Part shown: positions 597 through 26,970 of the stretch, in pieces
Layout of the letters: each line of letters opens with the position of its first letter
Position numbering within the stretch: the stretch's first letter is position 1
DNA from: Candidatus Electrothrix yaqonensis
Lineage (GTDB): Bacteria; Desulfobacterota; Desulfobulbia; Desulfobulbales; Desulfobulbaceae
Length of the DNA: 32,000 nt
Assembly: GCA_047651235.1 (NCBI GenBank)
Contig: CP178758.1
Span: 3,240,001 to 3,272,000 of the forward strand
Direction: 5' to 3'
The notes under the pieces: generated by a model
Seen by the model: only the letters and a program-made list of their open reading frames with translations
The model's database searches: none
Told to the model about the DNA's origin: nothing
Translations under genes and position numbers: made by a program

Positions 597-2231
597 ATGT
601 TGGCAAATTATCTTTCCGACCTTATTTCTGGAAAAAGGCAGATCACAGCAACAAAACTTTTGTTCCTTCTCTCTCTGTTCTTTGTTGCTATATACAACAT
701 AGCTTTTTTTCGCCACATCTTAGCAGTATACCCTTTGTCTCCAAAGAATTTTTATTTTTTAATCTCATTAACTGCCGGAATAACCTTTGTTATATTTTTA
801 TTGTTCACCCTGATAACCTCAGCAGGCGGAACAAAACCGATCCTGATATTTTTTCTTATAACATCATCCGTTGCAGCATATTTCATGGACAGCTATGATG
901 TCGTCATAGACCACATCATGATGCAGAACATAGCTGAAACAGACTGGTCGGAAACCTATGATCTGCTGAATATAAAAATACTGTATTATCTTCTGCTCCT
1001 CGGCCTGCTGCCGAGCTGGTTTGTATACCGGGTCAGGATTACAGCCGAATCTCTGAAAAAATCGATTTTCCGCAAAATACGGGATAGCTTTGTTGCCGTC
1101 CTGTTAATCTTTGCAATAATTTTAACATTCAGCAGGTTCTATACTTCATTCTTCAGAGAGCATAAGCCGCTACGGTATTACAGCAATCCCGGGTATTATG
1201 TTTATTCCTTCGGGAAATACATAAGCCAGAACTTCAATCTGCATAAAAAAACAGTCTCTCCGCTCGGGCTTGATGCGGAAGCAACTGAGCCCACTCATGA
1301 CGAACAGCAAAAAGAATTGGTGATCCTCGTTGTCGGAGAAGCGGCCAGAGCAGATCATTTTTCCTTAAACGGTTATCCGAAAGAAACAAATCCTCTGTTA
1401 AAAAAAGAGGATATCATAAGTATGAGCAGAGTATTCTCCTGCGGGACATCTACAGCGTATTCCGTTCCCTGTATGTTTTCTGTTTTTCCACGAGCAGAAT
1501 TCAGCCACAGCAGGGGCAAGGCAAATGAAAATGTATTGGACGTATTGCACCATACAGGTTTTGTCGATATCTTATGGCGGGATAACAACTCTGATTCAAA
1601 AGGTGTTGCCCTGCGTGTTGCTTATGAAGATTACAGCCTTCCGGAAAACAATACTCTTTGTTCAGATGGGGAATGCAGAGACGAGGGTATGCTGGTCGGG
1701 CTTGATCAGTATATTGCGGAACATCAGGGGAGAGATATTCTGATCATTCTCCATCAGATGGGAAATCACGGTCCGGCCTATTATAAAAGATACCCGAAAG
1801 CATTTGAACAATTCACCCCGGCCTGTACAACAAATCAGCTAGAAGAATGCACGCAGGAGGAAATAATCAATGCGTATGACAATGCGCTGTTATATACAGA
1901 CTACTTCCTGTCCAAGGTGATTGATCTGTTAAAAAAATATGATAAAAACCATGAAACGGCGATGATCTACTTCAGTGATCACGGTGAGAGCCTGGGAGAA
2001 AGCGGCGTATATCTTCATGGTCTGCCGTATATGATTGCCCCGGAATCCCAAAAGCATATCGGGGCGCTGATGTGGTTCGGAGACCATTTTACAAAAGACA
2101 TTGACGTTGACTCGATCCAAAAAAAGAGAGACAGGGAGTACAGTCACGACAACCTGTTTCATACTCTGCTTGGACTCTTTGAGATAAAGACCGAGGTCTA
2201 TAATCGGGAATTGGATATACTGCACGATTAA
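597..2231 (+). CDS. eptA: Phosphoethanolamine--lipid A transferase (EptA/MCR family; N-terminal membrane domain plus sulfatase-type catalytic domain)
   Basis: The 544-aa ORF has a hydrophobic N-terminal region. It carries family-typical motifs: VVGEAARADHFSLNGY, the CGTSTAYSVPCMFS catalytic Thr region, HQMGNHGPAYYKRYP and YFSDHGESLGESGVYLHG. Confidence 0.9.
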   Translation: MLANYLSDLISGKRQITATKLLFLLSLFFVAIYNIAFFRHILAVYPLSPKNFYFLISLTAGITFVIFLLFTLITSAGGTKPILIFFLITSSVAAYFMDSYDVVIDHIMMQNIAETDWSETYDLLNIKILYYLLLLGLLPSWFVYRVRITAESLKKSIFRKIRDSFVAVLLIFAIILTFSRFYTSFFREHKPLRYYSNPGYYVYSFGKYISQNFNLHKKTVSPLGLDAEATEPTHDEQQKELVILVVGEAARADHFSLNGYPKETNPLLKKEDIISMSRVFSCGTSTAYSVPCMFSVFPRAEFSHSRGKANENVLDVLHHTGFVDILWRDNNSDSKGVALRVAYEDYSLPENNTLCSDGECRDEGMLVGLDQYIAEHQGRDILIILHQMGNHGPAYYKRYPKAFEQFTPACTTNQLEECTQEEIINAYDNALLYTDYFLSKVIDLLKKYDKNHETAMIYFSDHGESLGESGVYLHGLPYMIAPESQKHIGALMWFGDHFTKDIDVDSIQKKRDREYSHDNLFHTLLGLFEIKTEVYNRELDILHD

Positions 2232-2258
2232 CCACTTGATATGACTTGATATATAATC

Positions 2259-3068
2259 ATGCGCCGTGCAGCAGCATCAGGAAAAGTTGGCAGCTCTATG
2301 GAAAACATCCCGTTCATGGTGTTTTTCCCGTGTCTGCTGTTAATCTTTGCCCTGATTTTTGAGTACAGCGGCATAGATATCTGGTGGGTTTCTCATTTTT
2401 ATGATCCCGGCAATAACATATGGCCGTACCGGGAACATTGGCTGTTCGATCATATTATTCATTCCGGCGGACAATTGCTCGACTGGTCTTTTGCGGCGAT
2501 CTGGCTCCTGTTCTTCCTTCTGATCAACATCAGGAAAGACCTCAGAATATACCGAAAAATAGCTCTCTATTTTTTTGTCGCTACTGCAGCAGGACCTCTG
2601 CTGGTCGGTATAGGAAAAAAATTTACCCACATTTATTCTCCCTGGGATCTGCAGCTGTTTAACGGGCCGGAGCCGTATATCAGAATGCTGGATGCCGTAC
2701 CCGCCAACGCGCCAAAGGGACACGCCTTTCCGGCCGGACATGCCTCCGGAGGATACTGCTTTCTCAGTATATATTTTGTCCTGCTGCGATACCGATCCGC
2801 GTACAGAGGATACGGCCTGATCTTCGGCTTGGTTCTCGGATTAATTTTCGGCTTGGGACAGCAGATAAGGGGTGCCCATTTTCCCAGTCATGATATGATA
2901 ACTGTGCTGATCTGCTGGTATGCTTCACTGGCTTGTTATCTTCTTTTTTATCCGGAGGAATGGCAGTTCTTGAAAACGGAACGTATCCTCCTGCCAGGGA
3001 AAGGGGATAAAACGATGAACCTGTCTCAAAAAAAACTGTATTACATATCATGGGTAAACACTATTTAA
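2259..3068 (+). CDS. PAP2-superfamily membrane phosphatase (divergent)
   Basis: The 269-aa polytopic ORF has FPAGHASGG (PSGH-like C2 motif) and IRGAHFPSHD (C3-like motif). It lies directly downstream of the eptA-like gene. The start could instead be the ATG at 2298 (MENIPF...). Confidence 0.75.
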   Translation: MRRAAASGKVGSSMENIPFMVFFPCLLLIFALIFEYSGIDIWWVSHFYDPGNNIWPYREHWLFDHIIHSGGQLLDWSFAAIWLLFFLLINIRKDLRIYRKIALYFFVATAAGPLLVGIGKKFTHIYSPWDLQLFNGPEPYIRMLDAVPANAPKGHAFPAGHASGGYCFLSIYFVLLRYRSAYRGYGLIFGLVLGLIFGLGQQIRGAHFPSHDMITVLICWYASLACYLLFYPEEWQFLKTERILLPGKGDKTMNLSQKKLYYISWVNTI

Positions 3069-10145: not shown

Positions 10146-10220
10146 GGCCCCATCGTCTAGCGGTCAGGACGACGGCCTCTCACGCCGTAAACAGGGGTTC
10201 GATTCCCCTTGGGGTCACCA
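10146..10220 (+). tRNA. tRNA-Glu (anticodon CUC), CCA encoded
   Basis: A manual cloverleaf fits: acceptor stem GGCCCCA/TGGGGTC, anticodon stem ACGGC/GCCGT with loop CTCTCAC (CTC anticodon), a GGTTCGATTCC T-arm and a terminal ACCA. It closely resembles canonical bacterial tRNA-Glu. Confidence 0.9.
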
Positions 10221-14358: not shown

Positions 14359-14718
14359 CTACTGCTGCTTGGCCTGCGCTTCCAGATTTTCTAGTATATC
14401 AACAAGCCTATCGCATTTCGTCTTGAAGTGAGCCAATGCCTGCTTTCCTTCCGCGCTTTTTCTTGTTTCTTCCGGCATCTGCACAAGACGTTTGATCTCG
14501 TTATGGACCTCTTTATGGGCAGAGTCAAGCCTGTCTGTTCCGGACAGTTCGGCAAGCTCCTGCAATCCTGAAGAGTAAAGCCATTTGCCGAGTTCGCAGT
14601 GCGTATGATCCGGCACCTGCGAAGCATTCAGCTCTTCTACTCCGTAAAAAAAGTCAGATAATTTTGATTTCCATTGCAGATGTACGATAGTTGCTGCCTG
14701 TAATTTGGCGACGTCCAT
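14359..14718 (-). CDS. Stand-alone CZB (chemoreceptor zinc-binding) domain protein, paralog 1
   Basis: The 119-aa ORF has the CZB 3His/1Cys pattern: HLQW..., DHTHCELGKWLY, AHKEVHNEI. Confidence 0.8.
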   Translation of the reverse strand: MDVAKLQAATIVHLQWKSKLSDFFYGVEELNASQVPDHTHCELGKWLYSSGLQELAELSGTDRLDSAHKEVHNEIKRLVQMPEETRKSAEGKQALAHFKTKCDRLVDILENLEAQAKQQ

Positions 14719-14999: not shown

Positions 15000-15359
15000 T
15001 TATATATTTTTAACTTTTCCCTCCAACGTGTCCAGAATTTCGACAAGTCTGTCGCATTTTTCCCTGAACCGATCCAGAGCCTCTCTCCCTTCCGTGCTCT
15101 TTCTTTGTTCCGGGGACATCTCCACAATCTGTCTGATCTCGTTATGCACTTCTTTGTGCAGCTGTTCGATTTTTTTCATTTCATCAAAACGACCAAAAGC
15201 CCGCAGTCCGACGCTGTATAACCATTTGCCGAAATCACAGTTCGTATGGTCAGAGACCTCTGAAGCTCTCAGCTTTTCCACACCGTGAAAAAAGCCAGAT
15301 AATTTTGCTTTCCAGTGCAGATGTGCTATGGTGGCTGCCTGTAACTGGGTAACGTCCAT
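15000..15359 (-). CDS. Stand-alone CZB (chemoreceptor zinc-binding) domain protein, paralog 2
   Basis: The 119-aa ORF is colinear with paralog 1 over its full length, with roughly half the residues identical by eye. Motifs: HLHW, DHTNCDFGKWLY, LHKEVHNEI. Confidence 0.8.
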   Translation of the reverse strand: MDVTQLQAATIAHLHWKAKLSGFFHGVEKLRASEVSDHTNCDFGKWLYSVGLRAFGRFDEMKKIEQLHKEVHNEIRQIVEMSPEQRKSTEGREALDRFREKCDRLVEILDTLEGKVKNI

Positions 15360-19269: not shown

Positions 19270-19710
19270 ATGACTGATCAGAATCACTTTCGTATCACCG
19301 CTGCCGTGGTCCTTCCGGCTGCCGAGCTGTCGTTCAGTTATTCGCGCAGCAGCGGTAAAGGCGGGCAGCATGTGAACAAGGTCAATACCAAGGTATCCCT
19401 GCACTTTGACTTGGCCGCTTCGCAGAGCCTGACTGATGAGCAGAAAACGCTGATCCAGCAGCGGCTTGCCGGACGGATAAACAATCAGGGCGTACTTCGG
19501 CTGGACAACGACCGGCAGCGCAGCCAAAGGGGCAATCAGGAGGAGGTGATCCGGCGGTTCATCAGCCTGCTGCAGGCCGCCCTGCACGTCCGCAAAAGTA
19601 GGCGCCGAACCCGGCCTTCGCGGAAAGCCCGGCAGCGCCGACTGCAGACGAAAAAGCAGCGCAGTCAGCTCAAGCGGCAGCGGACGCAGCGGGATTTTGA
19701 GAAGGAGTGA
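19270..19710 (+). CDS. arfB: Alternative ribosome-rescue factor ArfB (peptidyl-tRNA hydrolase, GGQ domain plus basic C-terminal tail)
   Basis: The 146-aa ORF has a GKGGQHVNKVNTKV GGQ motif and an Arg/Lys-rich tail (RKSRRRTRPSRKARQRRLQTKKQR). Confidence 0.88.
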   Translation: MTDQNHFRITAAVVLPAAELSFSYSRSSGKGGQHVNKVNTKVSLHFDLAASQSLTDEQKTLIQQRLAGRINNQGVLRLDNDRQRSQRGNQEEVIRRFISLLQAALHVRKSRRRTRPSRKARQRRLQTKKQRSQLKRQRTQRDFEKE

Positions 19711-19716
19711 GGCTGC
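19686..19716 (+). repeat. Direct repeat, left copy (covers the last 7 codons and stop of arfB)
   Basis: gcagcgggattttgagaaggagtgaggctgc matches 21144-21174 at 29 of 31 positions. Confidence 0.85.
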
Positions 19717-19743
19717 GGGATAAGAAGCTTATAAAAGAACAGC

Positions 19744-19953
19744 TCATTCTTTCTTGAAGATTTTATTTATGCTTTCTTGGTAATCACTTTTTTTCATTTG
19801 ATTTATTTCCCCAAAACGATTAAGAGTAAACTTAAATTCATTTGGTGCTATCTGATTTGTGTCATCTATGTAAATCCTTGATATACCTTTTGAATTATCC
19901 TTTCCCAAAAATAGAGTTGTATTTTCTGAACGTCCAAATAATATTTTCTGCAT
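19744..19953 (-). CDS. Hypothetical small protein (69 aa), last gene of the islet
   Basis: The ORF starts 12 nt downstream of the preceding ORF's stop codon on the same strand. Its AT-rich codon usage is consistent with the islet. No motif was recognised. Confidence 0.45.
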   Translation of the reverse strand: MQKILFGRSENTTLFLGKDNSKGISRIYIDDTNQIAPNEFKFTLNRFGEINQMKKSDYQESINKIFKKE

Positions 19954-19964
19954 AGCATCCCCTT

Positions 19965-20390
19965 TTAAGTTAATTGCTTGGAATCTTTCATTTCTACAAG
20001 GACATTATCCAAAACAGAGATCATCTTTTCTTCAATATACCGTTCCATGCCAAGCACAACAACTTTGCGGTTTTTAACGATATGGCTAAGTGAACGTTCA
20101 AGACGAATATATTCAGCAAGAGAATCTGCAAAAGTACAAGCTAATTGAACATCGTCTTCATTAAATACATTTTCTTTTTTACTTCCAATACACAATAAAG
20201 CATAAGGTATGCCATGCAGTATCACAGGAGCTACGAGGCCTGACTTATAGTGTTTAGTGAATTCTTGTTGAATTTTAGTAAATCTATCTACAAATACTAC
20301 TCTTTTAGTGAAGAAACATTTCCAAAATAATGTTTGTCGAAGTTTTTGCATTTGTATTTTCATCAAAATCAAGATTATCGACAATATCAT
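19965..20390 (-). CDS. C-terminal half of a GAF-like domain protein (probably the downstream part of a frameshifted gene)
   Basis: SGLVAPVILHGIPYALLCIGSKKENVFNEDDVQLACTFADSLAEYI resembles the C-terminal half of GAF domains. The first ~25 codons overlap the upstream ORF in another frame and look non-native. Confidence 0.5.
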   Translation of the reverse strand: MILSIILILMKIQMQKLRQTLFWKCFFTKRVVFVDRFTKIQQEFTKHYKSGLVAPVILHGIPYALLCIGSKKENVFNEDDVQLACTFADSLAEYIRLERSLSHIVKNRKVVVLGMERYIEEKMISVLDNVLVEMKDSKQLT

Positions 20391-20970
20391 CAGGTCTCAA
20401 AGGATCACTCGAAGGGTCACGGAACAATTCCAACTCTTTCAATTTAAAAGGAATTTCCTTGTAAGACTCTTTGTTTGAAACATCTAACCTTTCAGAATCC
20501 TTGTAACATACTCCTTTAATTGATACCCTGAGTCCTCCGTTTGCCAACAAGGAGTGGCGGTGTCTCATGGCTTCTCTATAACCACTAATCAAATTTACAA
20601 TATATTTTCTTAAAAGGTTTAGCATATCCTCCATTCGCAAACTATTGCTGTTATCTTCACCTAACTCTTCGTCTTCAACCATTTTGTCGATGAATCTCTT
20701 GTACATATGCCAAGAGTTATGAGTCTTGTAAAATATCTTATGATAACTGTCAACCACATAATAAAGTTCGCGAGCCTTCCGAGTACGATTGATCAACATT
20801 AAAAACAACGTAATAGTTAACATAACCATTACTACGGAAAGAGAAGCAAAATACCACTTGCCTACATCTTGAATAGCCATTGCAACAGTTATAACAGAAG
20901 CAACCAACCCAAAACTTATTGAAGCTGCTTGGCTAAATTCTATCAGTAATTCTTTTGTTCGCTCGATCAT
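20305..20970 (-). CDS. 2-TM membrane protein with the N-terminal half of a GAF-like cytoplasmic domain
   Basis: The 221-aa ORF has two hydrophobic helices (AASISFGLVASVITVAMAI and WYFASLSVVMVMLTITLFLMLI) followed by a soluble region. It overlaps the next ORF by 86 nt. Confidence 0.55.
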   Translation of the reverse strand: MIERTKELLIEFSQAASISFGLVASVITVAMAIQDVGKWYFASLSVVMVMLTITLFLMLINRTRKARELYYVVDSYHKIFYKTHNSWHMYKRFIDKMVEDEELGEDNSNSLRMEDMLNLLRKYIVNLISGYREAMRHRHSLLANGGLRVSIKGVCYKDSERLDVSNKESYKEIPFKLKELELFRDPSSDPLRPDDIVDNLDFDENTNAKTSTNIILEMFLH

Positions 20971-21108
20971 ATTAACAGGAAGGCATACTTATATTTTAAA
21001 GAAAAAACTTCTAAATGAAAAGAAAAAAAACAAAAATCATACAGAGGTAATATATTGAAATAAAACCTAAAAACAAAGCCGAACACGGATCAACGATATT
21101 AAATATAA

Positions 21109-21137
21109 ATTATAGTGCATTTTCTTGAAAAAGACAA
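21109..21137 (-). promoter_or_regulatory. Near-consensus sigma-70 promoter driving the islet genes (TTGTCT-17 nt-TATAAT)
   Basis: On the minus strand the sequence reads TTGTCT (21137-21132), a 17-nt spacer, then TATAAT (21114-21109). It lies about 140 nt upstream of the ATG at 20970 and abuts the right direct repeat. Confidence 0.55.
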
Positions 21138-21143
21138 GTTTTG

Positions 21144-21174
21144 GCAGCGGAATTTTGAGAGGGAGTGAGGCTGC
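21144..21174 (+). repeat. Direct repeat, right copy (pseudo-3' end of arfB)
   Basis: gcagcggaattttgagagggagtgaggctgc. In the arfB frame it would read QRNFERE-stop, versus QRDFEKE-stop in the left copy. Confidence 0.85.
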
Positions 21175-21539
21175 TCAATATTCAGCAGGCTGCCGCTCAA
21201 CCTCGCTTATCAGATTGACCACTAGTGCTTTGTAAAACCTAAAATTTAGGGTTGAACATATCGCACTCGTTTAATATTCGTATCTTATTTGGAGATAGCA
21301 ATCCTAAAATTTAGCTATGACTGAGCAATAGGCGGATAAGCAGATCCTTTTGCTCCGGCGAGCTGGAGGCAATGAGCAGAGTCAGGACCAGGGAAATTCA
21401 AGCCAGCTCCTGACCGGAAAGTCAAGATACTTGCACGAAACCGGGCAGGAAGGTATATTCAGCATTCATTCAGAATTCTGTCGGTTGAGATACCGCCTCT
21501 CTGGAACCAACAAACGAACCTACTGCCGGGAAAAGCATA

Positions 21540-23141
21540 ATGACCATTGAGTTTTACGACACCACCCTCCGGGACGGCACCCAGGCCGAGAACTTCAATC
21601 TTTCGGTTGACGATAAGATCAAAATTAGCCATCAGCTGGACAAGTTGGGGATTGATTTTATCGAAGGCGGCTGGCCTGGTTCCAATCCCCTGGCAGTGGA
21701 GTATTTTGAAAAGATGAAGGGCGTGGAACTCAAACATGCCCGACTCACCGCCTTCGGCGCGACCCGGCATTTTCAGAATCCGCCGGATAAAGATCCGAAT
21801 CTCCAGGCCCTGCTGGCTGCCGAGACTCCGGGAATCACCATTTTCGGCAAGAGCTGGGATATCCATGTCCACGATGCCCTGCGCATCGAGCTGGAGGACA
21901 ATCTGCAGATCATCGAGGATTCCCTAGCCTATCTGCGTCCCCATGTCCAACATCTGATCTATGATGCCGAGCATTTTTTTGACGGCTTCAAGAATAACCG
22001 GGAATACTGTCTGGCGACCCTGGAACGGGCCGTCCGGGGCGGAGCGGAAACCTTGGCCCTGTGCGATACCAACGGCGGCACCCTGCCGCATGAAATTCCG
22101 CCGATCATCGAACGGGTTAAACAGTTTCTGGAGGAACTGGGCAGCACAGCTAGGATTGGTATCCATCCTCATAACGATTCCGAGACCGGGGTGGCCAATG
22201 CCCTGCTGGGGGTTTCTCTGGGAGCGGGTCAGGTCCAGGGCACCATCAACGGCTACGGCGAACGCTGCGGCAATGCCAACCTGACCTCGATCATCCCGGC
22301 GGTGATCTGCAAGATGGGCCTGGAGGCTGAGGTGGGCAAGCATATCGACAAGCTCTATACCACCTCCCGGCTGATCAATGAACTGGCCAACCTGCCCCAC
22401 AACCGGTATCAGCCCTATGTGGGCGAGTCCGCCTTTGCCCATAAGGGCGGCATCCATGTCAGTGCAGTGCAGCGCAATCCCCTGACCTATGAACATATTG
22501 AGCCGGAGAAAGTGGGCAATGTCCGCCGCATCCTGATCTCCGACCAGGCCGGCAAGTCCAATGTCATGCACAAGGCGGTCAAGTACGGCCTGAATCTGAA
22601 GGCCGATGATCCGGCCATGTCCCAGATCGTCCGTGACCTCAAGGAGCTGGAAAACCAGGGGTTTCAGTATGAGGGGGCAGAGGCCAGCTTTGAGCTGCTC
22701 ATGCGCCGGGCAATGGGGATCAAACCCCGTTTTTTCATTCTGGAAAGTTTCCGGGTCATGAATAATAAATACCGGATGGATTCCGCTTCGCTCACAGAGG
22801 CCACCATCCGCCTGACCGTGGACGGCGAAGAGGCCCATACCGCTTCGCTGGGCAACGGCCCGGTCAATGCCTTGGACAAAGCCATGCGTAAGGCCCTGCT
22901 CCGGTTTTATCCCCGCCTGGAGGAAATGGAACTGGTGGACTACAAGGTGCGGGTGCTGTCCGGCGAACACGGCACCGGGGCCAAGGTCCGGGTTCTGGTG
23001 GAGAGCCGGGATGCGGACAGCCACTGGAGCACGGTCGGCGTTTCCCTGAATATCATCGAGGCCAGCTGGCAGGCCCTTGAGGATGCCGTCAACTACAAGC
23101 TAATGAAGGATGCGCGGAGGGAGAGAGGTGCATCCGCATGA
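21540..23141 (+). CDS. cimA: Citramalate synthase (LeuA-related, isoleucine pathway)
   Basis: The 533-aa ORF has FYDTTLRDGTQAENF, HPHNDSETGVAN and a C-terminal LeuA-dimerisation-type domain. Length and N-terminus fit the CimA/TIGR00977 type rather than LeuA. Confidence 0.85.
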   Translation: MTIEFYDTTLRDGTQAENFNLSVDDKIKISHQLDKLGIDFIEGGWPGSNPLAVEYFEKMKGVELKHARLTAFGATRHFQNPPDKDPNLQALLAAETPGITIFGKSWDIHVHDALRIELEDNLQIIEDSLAYLRPHVQHLIYDAEHFFDGFKNNREYCLATLERAVRGGAETLALCDTNGGTLPHEIPPIIERVKQFLEELGSTARIGIHPHNDSETGVANALLGVSLGAGQVQGTINGYGERCGNANLTSIIPAVICKMGLEAEVGKHIDKLYTTSRLINELANLPHNRYQPYVGESAFAHKGGIHVSAVQRNPLTYEHIEPEKVGNVRRILISDQAGKSNVMHKAVKYGLNLKADDPAMSQIVRDLKELENQGFQYEGAEASFELLMRRAMGIKPRFFILESFRVMNNKYRMDSASLTEATIRLTVDGEEAHTASLGNGPVNALDKAMRKALLRFYPRLEEMELVDYKVRVLSGEHGTGAKVRVLVESRDADSHWSTVGVSLNIIEASWQALEDAVNYKLMKDARRERGASA

Positions 23142-24386: not shown

Positions 24387-25739
24387 ATGACAGACAACAG
24401 CCGGAATCGGATTTCCATTTGGGAGGCCAAGAACCGACTGGCCTTTAATGAACCGCTCAAGCCCGGTGATCCGCTCTTTGTCGAGACTGACTCGGCCCGT
24501 GGGGATTTCAGCCTCAAGCGACTCTACCGGGAACTGAACGTGGATAACCAGGGCATTGCCCATAGCAAACCTGCTGCGCCCCCTAAGCAATACACCCTCT
24601 TGACCGGGCATCGCGGTTGCGGCAAAAGCACCGAGCTGCTGCGTATGGCCGAGTATCTCCATGATCCAGCCCGCTATTATGTCATCCATCTGGACTGCCT
24701 GGAAAAACTGGATATCCACAATCTGAAATACTCGGATGTGCTGCTGGCCCTGGCGGCTGCCCTGTTTGACCGCCTTGAAAAGGAAGAGGGGATCGAGATG
24801 GAACAGGTGCATCTGACCCGCCTGGAAAACTGGTTCCGGGAGAAGGTGGAGGTGCATAGCGATCTGCGTGAATTTACCGCAGAGGTCAGAGGTGCGGTCA
24901 AGGCCAGGACCGGCCTGCCCTGGCTGGTCAAGCTCTTTGCCGAGCTGACCAACAAGATTAATATCGGCTCGACCTATCGGGAAGAACTGCGCCTGGTGGT
25001 ACGTAACAACTTCAGTGAATTTGCCGAGGCCTTTAACCAGCTCATCCGGGCTGGTGAAGAAAAGATCCGGACTGAAGGCAAGGGGCAGCGTATTCTGTTC
25101 ACCGTGGACGGCACGGATCGGCTCAACAGTGAGGACTCCAGCAAGTTCTTTGTCGAAGATGTCCATCAGTTGACCCAAATTTCCGGCCTATTCATCTACT
25201 GCGCCCCCATCCACCTGCTCCATCAGGACAACTGCCTTAATGCCAGCTTCAGCCAGTCCTTCCGTTTGCCCATGCTCAAAATTCGGGACCGGGACAATGA
25301 CGAAATCCCGGAAAATGTCGCCGTGATGCGGGAACTGGCTCTGCGCCGGGTGCCGGAATACCTGTTTGACGATCTTGCCACCCTGGACTATCTGATCTCA
25401 TACAGCGGCGGCCATCCCCGCGATATGATCCGGCTGCTCAACACAGCGGTCAATTTTGCCGAGGAGGAACGTATTGACCGGGCCGCTGCGGAAAAGGCGA
25501 TCAAGCAGGTAGCCAATGAATACCGCCGTTTTATCAACACTGACGACTACGTCCGCCTAGTCCAGATCGATCTGCATCCGGATGCGCCTGATGACTTCAC
25601 TGACCAGCAGAGCAGTGAAATGCTCTACAATCTGCTCCTGCTGGAGTACAACGACTACGACTATTTCTGGAAAAGCCACCCGGTGATCACCAGCCTGCCG
25701 GGCTACCAGAAGGCTCTTCAGGCAACCGGCTGTGTCTGA
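24387..25739 (+). CDS. P-loop NTPase of AAA+/STAND-like type (Walker A GHRGCGKST, Walker B ILFTVDGTD), no effector domain recognised
   Basis: The 450-aa ORF has Walker A at LLTGHRGCGKSTELL and a NACHT/Cdc6-like Walker B at RILFTVDGTDRL. The later GGHPRDMIRLLN resembles an AAA+ lid/sensor-2 region. No SD is visible before the ATG. Confidence 0.7.
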   Translation: MTDNSRNRISIWEAKNRLAFNEPLKPGDPLFVETDSARGDFSLKRLYRELNVDNQGIAHSKPAAPPKQYTLLTGHRGCGKSTELLRMAEYLHDPARYYVIHLDCLEKLDIHNLKYSDVLLALAAALFDRLEKEEGIEMEQVHLTRLENWFREKVEVHSDLREFTAEVRGAVKARTGLPWLVKLFAELTNKINIGSTYREELRLVVRNNFSEFAEAFNQLIRAGEEKIRTEGKGQRILFTVDGTDRLNSEDSSKFFVEDVHQLTQISGLFIYCAPIHLLHQDNCLNASFSQSFRLPMLKIRDRDNDEIPENVAVMRELALRRVPEYLFDDLATLDYLISYSGGHPRDMIRLLNTAVNFAEEERIDRAAAEKAIKQVANEYRRFINTDDYVRLVQIDLHPDAPDDFTDQQSSEMLYNLLLLEYNDYDYFWKSHPVITSLPGYQKALQATGCV

Positions 25740-26970
25740 ACAGAAGCACTGGCAGCTCCGGCCGGAGCACTCCGGCTGCCTGCTCCGCCTGCAGAAGATA
25801 CTGGAGCGGGTGCGGGGTTTCCGCGTGCTCATCCTGCAGCATAACCGGCCCAAATACCGGGACGGGATAATTGCCTTTCTCCGGGAGGCTGAGCCGGACA
25901 GCGCCCTGCTGGATCTGAAGGAGTCAGGCAGCTTTGCCGCTTTTGAGGCCGAGTTGGGCAAGTACAGCCTGATCCGGCAGCTGCATCTGATCAATCTGGA
26001 AGCGCTGCCCAGGGCAGAGCAGCAGGCCTTTTTCAAGGGGCTGAATTATCACCGGGAACACCTCGCCCGCACCTGCAGCGGCATTCTTCTTTTCTGGCTG
26101 CCGGACCATCTCATTAATCAGCTGGCTGTGGAGGCCCCGGATTTCTGGGCCTGGCGGGAGCAGGTGTTGGATTTCAGTGTGCCGGTTGAGCCGGTGGAGC
26201 GGATGACCGTTGACTGGGTTAAAAGCTGGAACTTGGAGCTTTCTGGGAAACAGGAACGGATAAAGGAGATTGAGGATTTTCTCGCCCGTCCCGCCGAGGA
26301 GCCTTCCTTAACCGCTGCCGATCTCAAACGGGAGCTGGGCAATCTGTATGAATCAATCGGCGAATACACTGAGGCTAAAAAAATACTGGAGGCCGCAGTT
26401 GACGAGTACGGCCAGCTGGACGAAGCTCAAGCCCGCGCCTCTGCCCGGCGTGATCTGGCTGAGCTGCTGGCTACTCAAGGTGATCCTGATCAGGCTCTGA
26501 TTATGCTCAGAGAACAGGTACTTCCTGTCTTCCGGCAGTTAAACAATGTACAGGAAGAGGCTGAAACCAAAGACCGGATCGCGGACATTTTTGAGCGGCG
26601 GGGCGAACTGGATGCGGCTCTCAGAATTCGGGAACAAGAAATATTGCCGTTTGTTGAGCGTCTCGGTGATTTACGTAATAAGGCCGTGACCATGGGGAAG
26701 ATAGCCGACATCCTTGAGACGCGCGGCCAGCTCGACGACGCTCTCAAAATCAGAGAGCAGGAAGAGCTAACCATATATGATCGGATCGGCGATGTGCGAG
26801 AACTATTGCTTTGCCGAACCAAGATTGCGCTCCTACTTCATGAAATGGATGCTGAAACGAATCAAGAAAGGATTGAAAAATTGCTGCGCCTCGCCTTGGC
26901 TGATGCCCGGCGGCTCAAGCTGCCCAGGGAAACAGCATGGATTGAGGGGATTATACGTAAAACAAAATGA
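25732..26970 (+). CDS. TPR-repeat protein with an N-terminal degenerate NTPase-like region
   Basis: The 412-aa ORF has a GTG start overlapping the upstream stop by 8 nt. The C-terminal half has repeated ~40-aa units (GELDAALRIREQEILPFVERLGD / GQLDDALKIREQEELTIYDRIGD). The N-terminus has strand-like FRVLILQHN without a P-loop. Confidence 0.7.
   Translation: MSEQKHWQLRPEHSGCLLRLQKILERVRGFRVLILQHNRPKYRDGIIAFLREAEPDSALLDLKESGSFAAFEAELGKYSLIRQLHLINLEALPRAEQQAFFKGLNYHREHLARTCSGILLFWLPDHLINQLAVEAPDFWAWREQVLDFSVPVEPVERMTVDWVKSWNLELSGKQERIKEIEDFLARPAEEPSLTAADLKRELGNLYESIGEYTEAKKILEAAVDEYGQLDEAQARASARRDLAELLATQGDPDQALIMLREQVLPVFRQLNNVQEEAETKDRIADIFERRGELDAALRIREQEILPFVERLGDLRNKAVTMGKIADILETRGQLDDALKIREQEELTIYDRIGDVRELLLCRTKIALLLHEMDAETNQERIEKLLRLALADARRLKLPRETAWIEGIIRKTK

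Follow-up and report, generated by a model that had tools for sequence, protein, structure and literature searches.

How did 1.4 kb of AT-rich DNA come to lie between the genes arfB and cimA in the cable bacterium Candidatus Electrothrix sp. YB6, flanked on either side by the 3' end of arfB, and what does it carry? These questions were raised by an earlier note on a 32,000-nucleotide (nt) stretch of the closed YB6 genome, which was analyzed as a whole and is referred to in the following as the window. The AT-rich segment, termed the islet, contains a two-gene operon for a membrane-held GAF-domain protein (designated TM-GAF, for its transmembrane and GAF parts) and a partner of 69 amino acids (aa). 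Its simplest reading, adopted here with moderate confidence, would be that a small conflict module with its own promoter entered the arfB 3' end by Campbell-type insertion, with the event being reconstructed from the anatomy of the locus.

The Repeat and the Foreign DNA between Its Copies

The islet is delimited by two direct copies of a 31-nt sequence, the left one being the end of arfB itself (Table 1). As claimed in the earlier note, the copies differ at two positions and are identical at the remaining 29 of 31, both differences being transitions (19693 G versus 21151 A and 19703 A versus 21161 G). Both also keep an open frame followed by a stop; translated by hand in the arfB frame, the left copy reads QRDFEKE-stop and the right copy QRNFERE-stop. 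Sequence identity between them ends exactly at the 31-mer on both sides. None of 100 dinucleotide-preserving shuffles yielded two matches to the 31-mer, and the repeat is not expected by chance. The 31-mer starts with GCAGC and finishes with GCTGC, thus carrying a 5-bp dyad, which was graded as weak.

The DNA between the repeats, 1,427 bp with a guanine-plus-cytosine (GC) content of 32.6%, is the lowest-GC 1.4-kb stretch of the window, the median of which is 54%. The GC content at third codon positions is 0.23 to 0.35 in the islet genes and 0.735 and 0.725 in arfB and cimA, respectively. By composition, the islet is foreign. The contrast with arfB described previously is thereby upheld, albeit with other figures: the islet falls below the 35-38% estimated by hand, and arfB, with 59.9% overall and 62.9% over its last 286 nt, does not reach the proposed 68%. 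The right copy is embedded between DNA of 24% GC on its left and of 37% GC on its right.

Non-coding DNA between the operon and the repeats amounts to just 27 nt and 173 nt. The promoter TTGTCT-17-TATAAT seen previously is indeed present on the minus strand, matching the consensus at 10 of 12 positions, but promoter-like sites in the region are not in excess (5 observed versus 4.7 in shuffles). Taken together, a single promoter-plus-operon unit is enclosed by the repeat, which on the left falls at the step in composition and by which arfB is left with a complete end. The suggestion that the element had brought a replacement end is borne out insofar as a direct repeat of the arfB 3' end bounds foreign DNA and arfB is full-length.

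Proposed Insertion at the arfB 3' End

A single reciprocal crossover of the Campbell type would have brought the foreign DNA into the 3' end of arfB, its partners being the last 31 bp of arfB and a 29/31-identical copy on a circular donor. The recombinase would have been supplied in trans, or it would have been replaced by recombination over the 31 bp of homology. One repeat copy would now complete arfB, and the other would be a displaced relic. We infer the direction of this exchange, and mobilization in trans is purely a postulate. In being imperfect, the repeat resembles pairs of attL and attR sites that arise when attP and attB differ outside the crossover. As to which copy is native, a hint comes from a one-base difference: in Desulfobulbaceae S24.Bin023, arfB ends in KRNFEQE, to which the right copy (cggAATtttgag, encoding RNFE) is a closer match than the left, according to which the right copy would be the displaced native arfB end. 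An ArfB protein ending in QRNFERE, the reconstructed "ancestral" form, is absent from a collection of 15 billion proteins. The predicted empty-site junction would consist of CAGCTCAAGCGGCAGCGGAC, the 31-mer, and TCAATATTCAGCAGGCTGCC, and the predicted circle junction of GAAAAAGACAAGTTTTG, the 31-mer, and GGGATAAGAAGCTTATAAAAG.

At the left junction, the 3' half of the repeat can pair with islet DNA to form a hairpin, which is followed by a U-rich run. Its fold of -18.2 kcal/mol (z = -2.3) is weak evidence, with 5 of 200 shuffles folding equally well. The hairpin could be a terminator between the convergent arfB gene and islet operon that was created at the junction.

In its build, the islet resembles integration remnants at gene 3' ends and may be described as integrase-less, att-flanked, and similar to a cis-mobilizable element (CIME). 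Its direct repeats stem from the 3' end of the target gene, the gene is intact, and genes for recombination or conjugation were not found inside it with Pfam and PADLOC.

Other types of element were considered. An insertion sequence, a miniature inverted-repeat transposable element, or a transposon was rejected on the grounds that terminal inverted repeats (none at 19717/21143) and a transposase are missing and that the duplication is 31 nt long. An integron gene cassette was likewise discarded, the islet having its own promoter, its repeats corresponding to arfB and not to attC, and no intI gene being present in the window. In a more general form, a transposition-like or staggered-break insertion would have copied 31 bp of its target, and two substitutions would have followed. 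The repeats are direct and lie immediately beside the insert, and both differences are transitions, as under drift, all of which would agree with a target-site duplication; it is nevertheless regarded as very improbable, given the lack of terminal inverted repeats and of a transposase and given a divergence of 6.5% between the copies, which is ill-suited to an otherwise open, unameliorated cargo. To our knowledge, a duplication of 31 bp also far exceeds those of known bacterial transposons.

Comparison with Related Genomes

For comparison, arfB loci from 80 genomes and cimA loci from five Electrothrix lineages were used. Homology between YB6 and its relatives extends to the arfB stop (19706-19710) and is found again from the cimA start (21528-21540), with the conserved cimA promoter region starting only at approximately 21445. 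The adjacency of arfB and cimA is found in YB6 only and in none of the relatives fetched. In these, a phosphorylase gene or a creD-like gene follows arfB. The DNA located 5' of cimA differs in every Electrothrix genome examined (loci L092, L093/L094, L095, L097, and L098), the variants being lysC; lysC with a gene for a 781-aa FG-GAP protein; lysC with TPR and hypothetical genes; an SLFN-like protein gene with a PtuB-like HNH cluster; and rpsB-tsf. The region 5' of cimA looks like a hot spot of recombination or of accessory-gene exchange, and on this comparison the islet is placed at a lineage-specific junction in a seemingly hypervariable spot.

The creD-like membrane gene, encoding 448 aa, lies directly 3' of arfB in L014 (6441-7822) and L001 (4903-6268) and is missing in L002 (at 6441; Ca. 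E. aarhusensis). As this gene has no long flanking repeat in L014 and L001, the idea of arfB as a recurrent hot spot was dropped. The insertion-deletion difference between lysC and cimA in L092 versus L093 is a replacement without repeats and was not accepted as a parallel to the islet.

From this variability, a different origin may be proposed, in which the islet would not be a discrete element but a rearrangement scar in a hot spot, with the AT-rich DNA belonging to the content of that hot spot and the second arfB end being a by-product of break and repair (i.e., a local duplication). The restriction of the arfB-cimA adjacency to YB6, the different genes 5' of cimA in every genome, the lack of a homologue for the 270 nt that follow the right repeat, and the L092/L093 difference at the same hot spot without a flanking repeat would all fit such a scar. 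However, the repeat matches the left compositional step exactly, brackets one promoter-plus-operon unit, and restores the arfB end, and there is no obvious mechanism by which repair would duplicate 31 bp and place 1.4 kb of foreign DNA between the copies. A scar is therefore considered improbable, and insertion at the arfB 3' end is retained as the preferred reading.

Within the spacer at 21175-21444, the palindrome CCTAAAaTTTAG occurs twice (21238-21249 and 21303-21314), the two copies being 65 nt apart.

The TM-GAF Gene and Its Frameshift

By alignment with the full-length homologues P0002-P0005, the three minus-strand open reading frames (ORFs) of the islet are one operon of two genes. Where the earlier note had listed two or three unrecognized ORFs, the number three holds, but the ORFs belong to two genes, of which one is frameshifted, and a GAF domain can be recognized. 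The cargo is thus a self-promoted two-gene operon, the larger gene of which encodes a GAF sensor domain together with an N-terminal two-helix hairpin and a long helix, by which the domain is anchored in the membrane.

The 221-aa and 141-aa ORFs overlap in different frames. When joined, they can be aligned over the full length of homologues that are single ORFs of 317-341 aa (40-47% identity), YB6 having four residues fewer at the frameshift site. The site itself is a run of five adenines on the coding strand (A5), and it is identical in the two Logan assemblies of the sequencing runs SRR31704081 and SRR31704082. Programmed frameshifting was rejected, all full-length homologues being single ORFs; since the homologues are unbroken, the frameshift in YB6 is a mutation. 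The frameshift is taken as real because both Logan assemblies match the window at 100%, including the A5 run.

The possibility of an assembly or sequencing artefact, concerning either the islet or the frameshift, bears on the same data. In its favor, the genome comes from a metagenome assembly based on Oxford Nanopore Technologies (ONT) reads, and the frameshift is located in a homopolymer. The YB6 genome was assembled from ONT R10 reads and then polished with Illumina reads (PMC12093952). Against an artefact stand this polishing and the two separate Logan assemblies, which agree with the window at every position over 8.0 and 4.7 kb (100% identity) and include both repeats as well as the A5 run; its probability is judged to be almost negligible. 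The Logan contigs of the YB6 runs stop at 21267 or 21290, and the contig with cimA begins at 21303; there is no break at the repeats. These breaks at 21267-21303 may be due to low coverage of AT-rich DNA or to polymorphism.

The 141-aa ORF matches GAF_2 of Pfam (PF13185; E 6.8e-7, 30.0 bits versus a cut-off of 28.6), with the match confined to profile positions 52-135, and Pfam GAF (PF01590) is also above threshold (28.9 versus 22.4). After repair, the TM-GAF protein would comprise approximately 334 aa with hydropathy peaks at residues 14-36 and 38-64. An AlphaFold2 (AF2) model of the repaired protein (predicted local distance difference test score, pLDDT, 83.5) contains helices at 2-33, 38-101, and 109-138, which are followed by an alpha/beta GAF fold. 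In a Foldseek comparison with the PDB, 78 matches were obtained at E<=1e-3, and all of the 50 that were listed are proteins with GAF-type sensor domains. From the Pfam scores, the AF2 fold, and the Foldseek matches, the TM-GAF protein is a GAF-domain protein. The basic stretch NRTRKAR after helix 2 suggests, by the positive-inside rule, a cytoplasmic location of the predicted GAF domain.

The 69-aa Partner

The partner gene is intact, and its product shows 52-57% identity to small proteins that are encoded directly 3' of TM-GAF homologues. The small-protein family has 11 members among 5.8 billion clusters. For the partner, there is no Pfam match at E<=1 and none in PHROGs, NCBIfam, or PADLOC, and its AF2 model (pLDDT 48) is uninformative.

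Distribution and Genomic Company of the Gene Pair

The gene pair is rare. A HMMER search over 1.84 billion representative proteins gave 48 matches, approximately 25 of which are family members, the rest being generic multi-GAF proteins; besides YB6, the only named host is one Desulfamplus metagenome-assembled genome. The islet proteins gave nothing beyond GAF in PADLOC, PHROGs, NCBIfam, PDB sequences, PLSDB plasmids, or INPHARED phages, and neither the window ORFs nor P0005, an intact homologue, have a match in PADLOC-DB 2.0. The large and the small gene are kept together in loci L083, L084, L085, L088/L089, and L099. In the most distant member (L090/L091), the protein encoded downstream has 72 aa and no clear homology to the 69-aa partner. 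The nucleotide similarity of 74-76% seen for L084, L085, and L088 spans exactly the two genes and stops at the gene ends.

Homologue P0005 is located on a 35-kb ENA contig (L088/L089, ctg1004261_1x_c), which has an internal repeat of 99.95% identity with a period of 23,486 bp and is probably a circular replicon of approximately 23.5 kb. It carries relaxase, HU, and helix-turn-helix genes. Up to 10 kb from the P0005 pair, a cyclase (4e-195) of the cyclic oligonucleotide-based antiphage signaling system (CBASS), a 2TM effector (8e-85), the Uzume protein UzuA (1e-54), and a TIR-like protein are encoded. In L083, the pair is flanked by a C-terminal type IIG restriction-modification enzyme fragment (8e-15) on one side and by an ATPase of the AriA/PtuA/GajA type on the other. 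An 80-kb IMG/VR viral contig (L099, also L103) has a 5'-truncated copy without the membrane part, in which the small partner is kept; this copy sits in a patch of 45-51% GC within sequence of 56-62% GC. By association, the module would appear to be mobile, patchy in distribution, often degraded, and found among defense genes. The defense cluster of ctg1004261_1x_c also has an MNT-like nucleotidyltransferase, alongside CBASS, the TIR-like protein, UzuA, and the TM-GAF pair.

From its genomic company and its architecture, the pair may be a conflict module of the toxin-antitoxin or abortive-infection type, an assignment that is plausible yet tentative. The GAF domain would sense a ligand or trigger and control a membrane or helical effector; this membrane or helical part would harm the envelope or cell division, and the 69-aa protein would hold the TM-GAF effector in check. 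The compact cargo cassette proposed in the earlier note has relatives among defense genes, as was expected, but its main gene is frameshifted here and probably inactive. More far-reaching, and doubtful, is the view of the pair as an undescribed two-gene defense system that spreads as a self-promoted cassette of approximately 1.2-1.5 kb, the YB6 islet then being its integration by a recombinase acting in trans and, in principle, excisable.

The company of the homologues is also relevant for a further origin of the islet, namely, as the stump of a larger integrated element (i.e., an island, an integrative plasmid, or a prophage) that integrated at the arfB 3' end by means of its own integrase and later underwent an internal deletion sparing the operon and the att sites. 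Such a history would account for an att-like repeat with two mismatches, for the other occurrences of the module, in a viral contig and on a plasmid with a relaxase, for the cargo gene being already in decay, and for the heavy rearrangement of cable-bacterium genomes around the locus. On the other hand, with only 27 and 173 nt of non-coding DNA, both ends of the deletion would have to lie almost precisely at the att sites, with no integrase fragment left, and no recombinase remnant is found among the ORFs. A stump is therefore rated as rather unlikely, and direct insertion of the small module remains the simplest reading.

Evidence Weighing against the Proposed Insertion

Several findings nevertheless speak against the insertion of a conflict module as outlined above. 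The empty site that the earlier note had proposed to look for was not found in any relative fetched; the test is impossible with the available genomes because arfB and cimA are adjacent in YB6 only. The junction is lineage-specific and the region heavily rearranged, and the repeat may stem from rearrangement instead. The proposed check for the 31-mer elsewhere was equally negative: there is no further copy in the window (at <=3 mismatches), none in 98 fetched loci, JGI metagenome contigs, and IMG/VR, and none near other module copies (at <=8 mismatches). As it is seen nowhere else, the 31-mer could be shown to be neither an att site of a mobile family nor a dispersed repeat. At other copies of the module, flanking repeats are limited to short matches at chance level. 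Neither in the islet, as stated before, nor among the main ORFs of the window is there a recombinase or transposase.

Further, AT-rich DNA (37% GC) runs on for 156 nt past the right repeat, and a 12-mer related to the spacer palindromes, TAAAACCTAAAA, is located at 21061-21072 inside the 5' untranslated region of the islet, so that related motifs lie on both sides of the right repeat. The palindromes and the 12-mer could be operator sites common to both sides of the supposed element boundary.

With regard to the cargo, a defense or toxin role is backed by no PADLOC, PHROGs, NCBIfam, or Pfam family beyond GAF, the 69-aa partner is not a Panacea-domain protein according to Pfam, and the evidence from context consists of three informative loci (the P0005 contig, L083, and L099). 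As a result of the frameshift, a membrane fragment of 221 aa remains, possibly together with a separate GAF fragment of 141 aa, and the module is most likely dead. With its large gene frameshifted, the YB6 module is therefore probably a decaying passenger and probably of little importance for the biology of the strain.

Beyond the strain, the islet is a clean and very small case of a core translation-rescue gene serving as an undamaged landing site for foreign cargo, in a cable bacterium that is not genetically manipulable and whose mobile-element biology is almost unknown. A rare gene pair with defense-gene neighbors and a toxin-like architecture would be a reasonable candidate for a conflict or defense module that is testable in E. 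coli.

Features and Neighboring Genes

Table 1. Features of the arfB-cimA region of Ca. Electrothrix sp. YB6 (positions are those of the window).
Feature	Position	Strand	Remarks
arfB, alternative ribosome-rescue peptidyl-tRNA hydrolase	19270..19710	+	146 aa; last 7 codons and stop within left repeat
Left repeat copy, attL-like	19686..19716	+	GCAGCGGGATTTTGAGAAGGAGTGAGGCTGC; 22 nt coding, TGA stop, 6 further nt
Junction hairpin	19700..19755	+	3' half of left repeat, AGAAGGAGTGAG, pairs with islet CTCATTCTTTCTT; U-rich run after
69-aa partner gene (XOF33351.1), intact	19744..19953	-	homologues encoded directly downstream of TM-GAF homologues
TM-GAF gene, 3' part	19965..20390	-	141 aa; C-terminal half of GAF; frame differs from 5' part
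TM-GAF gene, 5' part	20305..20970	-	221-aa hypothetical protein ACL93V_15325; 2 hydrophobic helices, long helix, first GAF strands
Frameshift site, A5 run on coding strand	20343..20347	-	AATGCAAAAACTT; upstream frame ...NTNAK, downstream ...KLRQTLFW
Sigma-70-like promoter TTGTCT-17-TATAAT	21109..21137	-	10/12 consensus matches; directed into operon, ~140 nt upstream of ATG at 20970
Right repeat copy, attR-like	21144..21174	+	putative relic of arfB 3' end, 58% GC
Spacer between right repeat and conserved cimA promoter region	21175..21444		no homologue in any relative
cimA, citramalate synthase, conserved right flank	21540..23141	+	Pfam HMGL-like, HCS_D2, LeuA_dimer

The arfB product (XOF33350.1, Ca. 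Electrothrix sp. YB6, named ArfB by NCBI) contains an RF-1 domain (Pfam, E 5.5e-15) and shares 66-71% identity with its counterparts from other Electrothrix and Desulfobulbaceae genomes. The cimA DNA is 81-84% identical to that of relatives, from 21528-21540 on. On the left flank, the order is a radical-SAM gene, yhbY, and arfB; on the right, cimA is followed by an AhpC-like and a ComEA-like gene. Scans with Rfam and for tRNA genes gave nothing within or near the islet.

Elsewhere in the window, horizontal acquisition is possible for a second low-GC stretch (597-3068, 39-47% GC), in which a PAP2 phosphatase and an EptA-like phosphoethanolamine transferase are encoded. A tRNA-Glu(CTC) gene at 10146-10220 is followed, up to 12600, by small, poorly conserved genes (DUF498, a cysteine-rich 190-aa ORF, and DUF4160); a parallel islet at this tRNA gene was considered and dropped, the tRNA end not being repeated there. 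At 14359-14718 and 15000-15359, tandem paralogous genes for 119-aa CZB-domain proteins (71-80% identical, 641-nt period) lie in a segment of 41-44% GC. Located 3' of the ComEA-like gene, at 24387-26970, the gene for a 450-aa AAA_16/ORC-Cdc6-like ATPase overlaps that for a 412-aa TPR protein, where relatives have miaA; this pair is another possible accessory insertion.

Relation to Known Systems

Among integrated elements, CIMEs of the ICESt1/ICESt3 family, which occupy the 3' end of fda in Streptococcus thermophilus, have att-type direct repeats, leave the gene intact, lack integrase and transfer genes, and carry accessory cargo. The YB6 islet shares with them the direct repeats from a gene 3' end, the intact gene, the accessory cargo, and the lack of integrase and transfer genes, but with approximately 1.46 kb it is much smaller than the CIMEs described. 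We know of no cognate integrative and conjugative element, integrative and mobilizable element, or integrase for an arfB site. Islands at the 3' ends of tRNA, tmRNA, and protein genes, such as the ssrA islands of Dehalococcoides, bring a replacement end and encode, adjacent to one of the att sites, a tyrosine or serine recombinase of their own. The YB6 islet agrees with these islands in its accessory cargo, in the sharp change in base composition, and in having an imperfect direct repeat that copies the 3' end of the target; it differs in having neither a recombinase nor room for a remnant of one.

With regard to the cargo, the PycTM effectors of Pycsar and the 2TM effectors of CBASS combine a small-molecule sensor with two transmembrane helices and occur in defense islands. 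The TM-GAF protein likewise has a sensor domain and two transmembrane helices, and a CBASS 2TM effector is encoded near homologue P0005. However, no cyclase accompanies the module in YB6, L083, or L099, its sensor is a GAF domain and not a cNMP-binding (cyclic nucleoside monophosphate) or SAVED domain, and there is no PADLOC match. Weak structural similarity of the TM-GAF model was found to the T4-type (class III) holin T (Foldseek BFVD, E 2e-3, TM-score on target 0.60), with no sequence similarity and with generic GAF domains scoring higher. Holin T, with its antiholin RI, resembles the YB6 pair in having a membrane anchor, a globular alpha/beta domain, and a small controlling partner; it differs by having one transmembrane helix and a periplasmic domain, in contrast to two helices and a predicted cytoplasmic domain in YB6.

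A toxin of comparable build has been validated experimentally in Gelidibacter mesophilus. The toxin-antitoxin toxin toxFtsL(D9), a protein of 281 aa described as having a transmembrane segment, an FtsL-like helix, and a GAF domain, acts by preventing assembly of the divisome, and the neighboring PanA neutralizes it (Ernits et al. 2023, PMC10440598). The toxFtsL(D9):PanA pair (WP_027127282.1/WP_027127283.1) belongs to a network of toxin-antitoxin and phage-defense systems (PMC10440598). Its toxin is shorter than the approximately 330 aa of the YB6 protein, and its partner is a Panacea-domain protein, whereas the YB6 partner has no Pfam family. When compared by architecture alone, toxFtsL(D9), in which a transmembrane segment, a long helix, and a GAF domain are likewise combined and to which a small partner is adjoined, is the closest characterized analogue of the YB6 pair.

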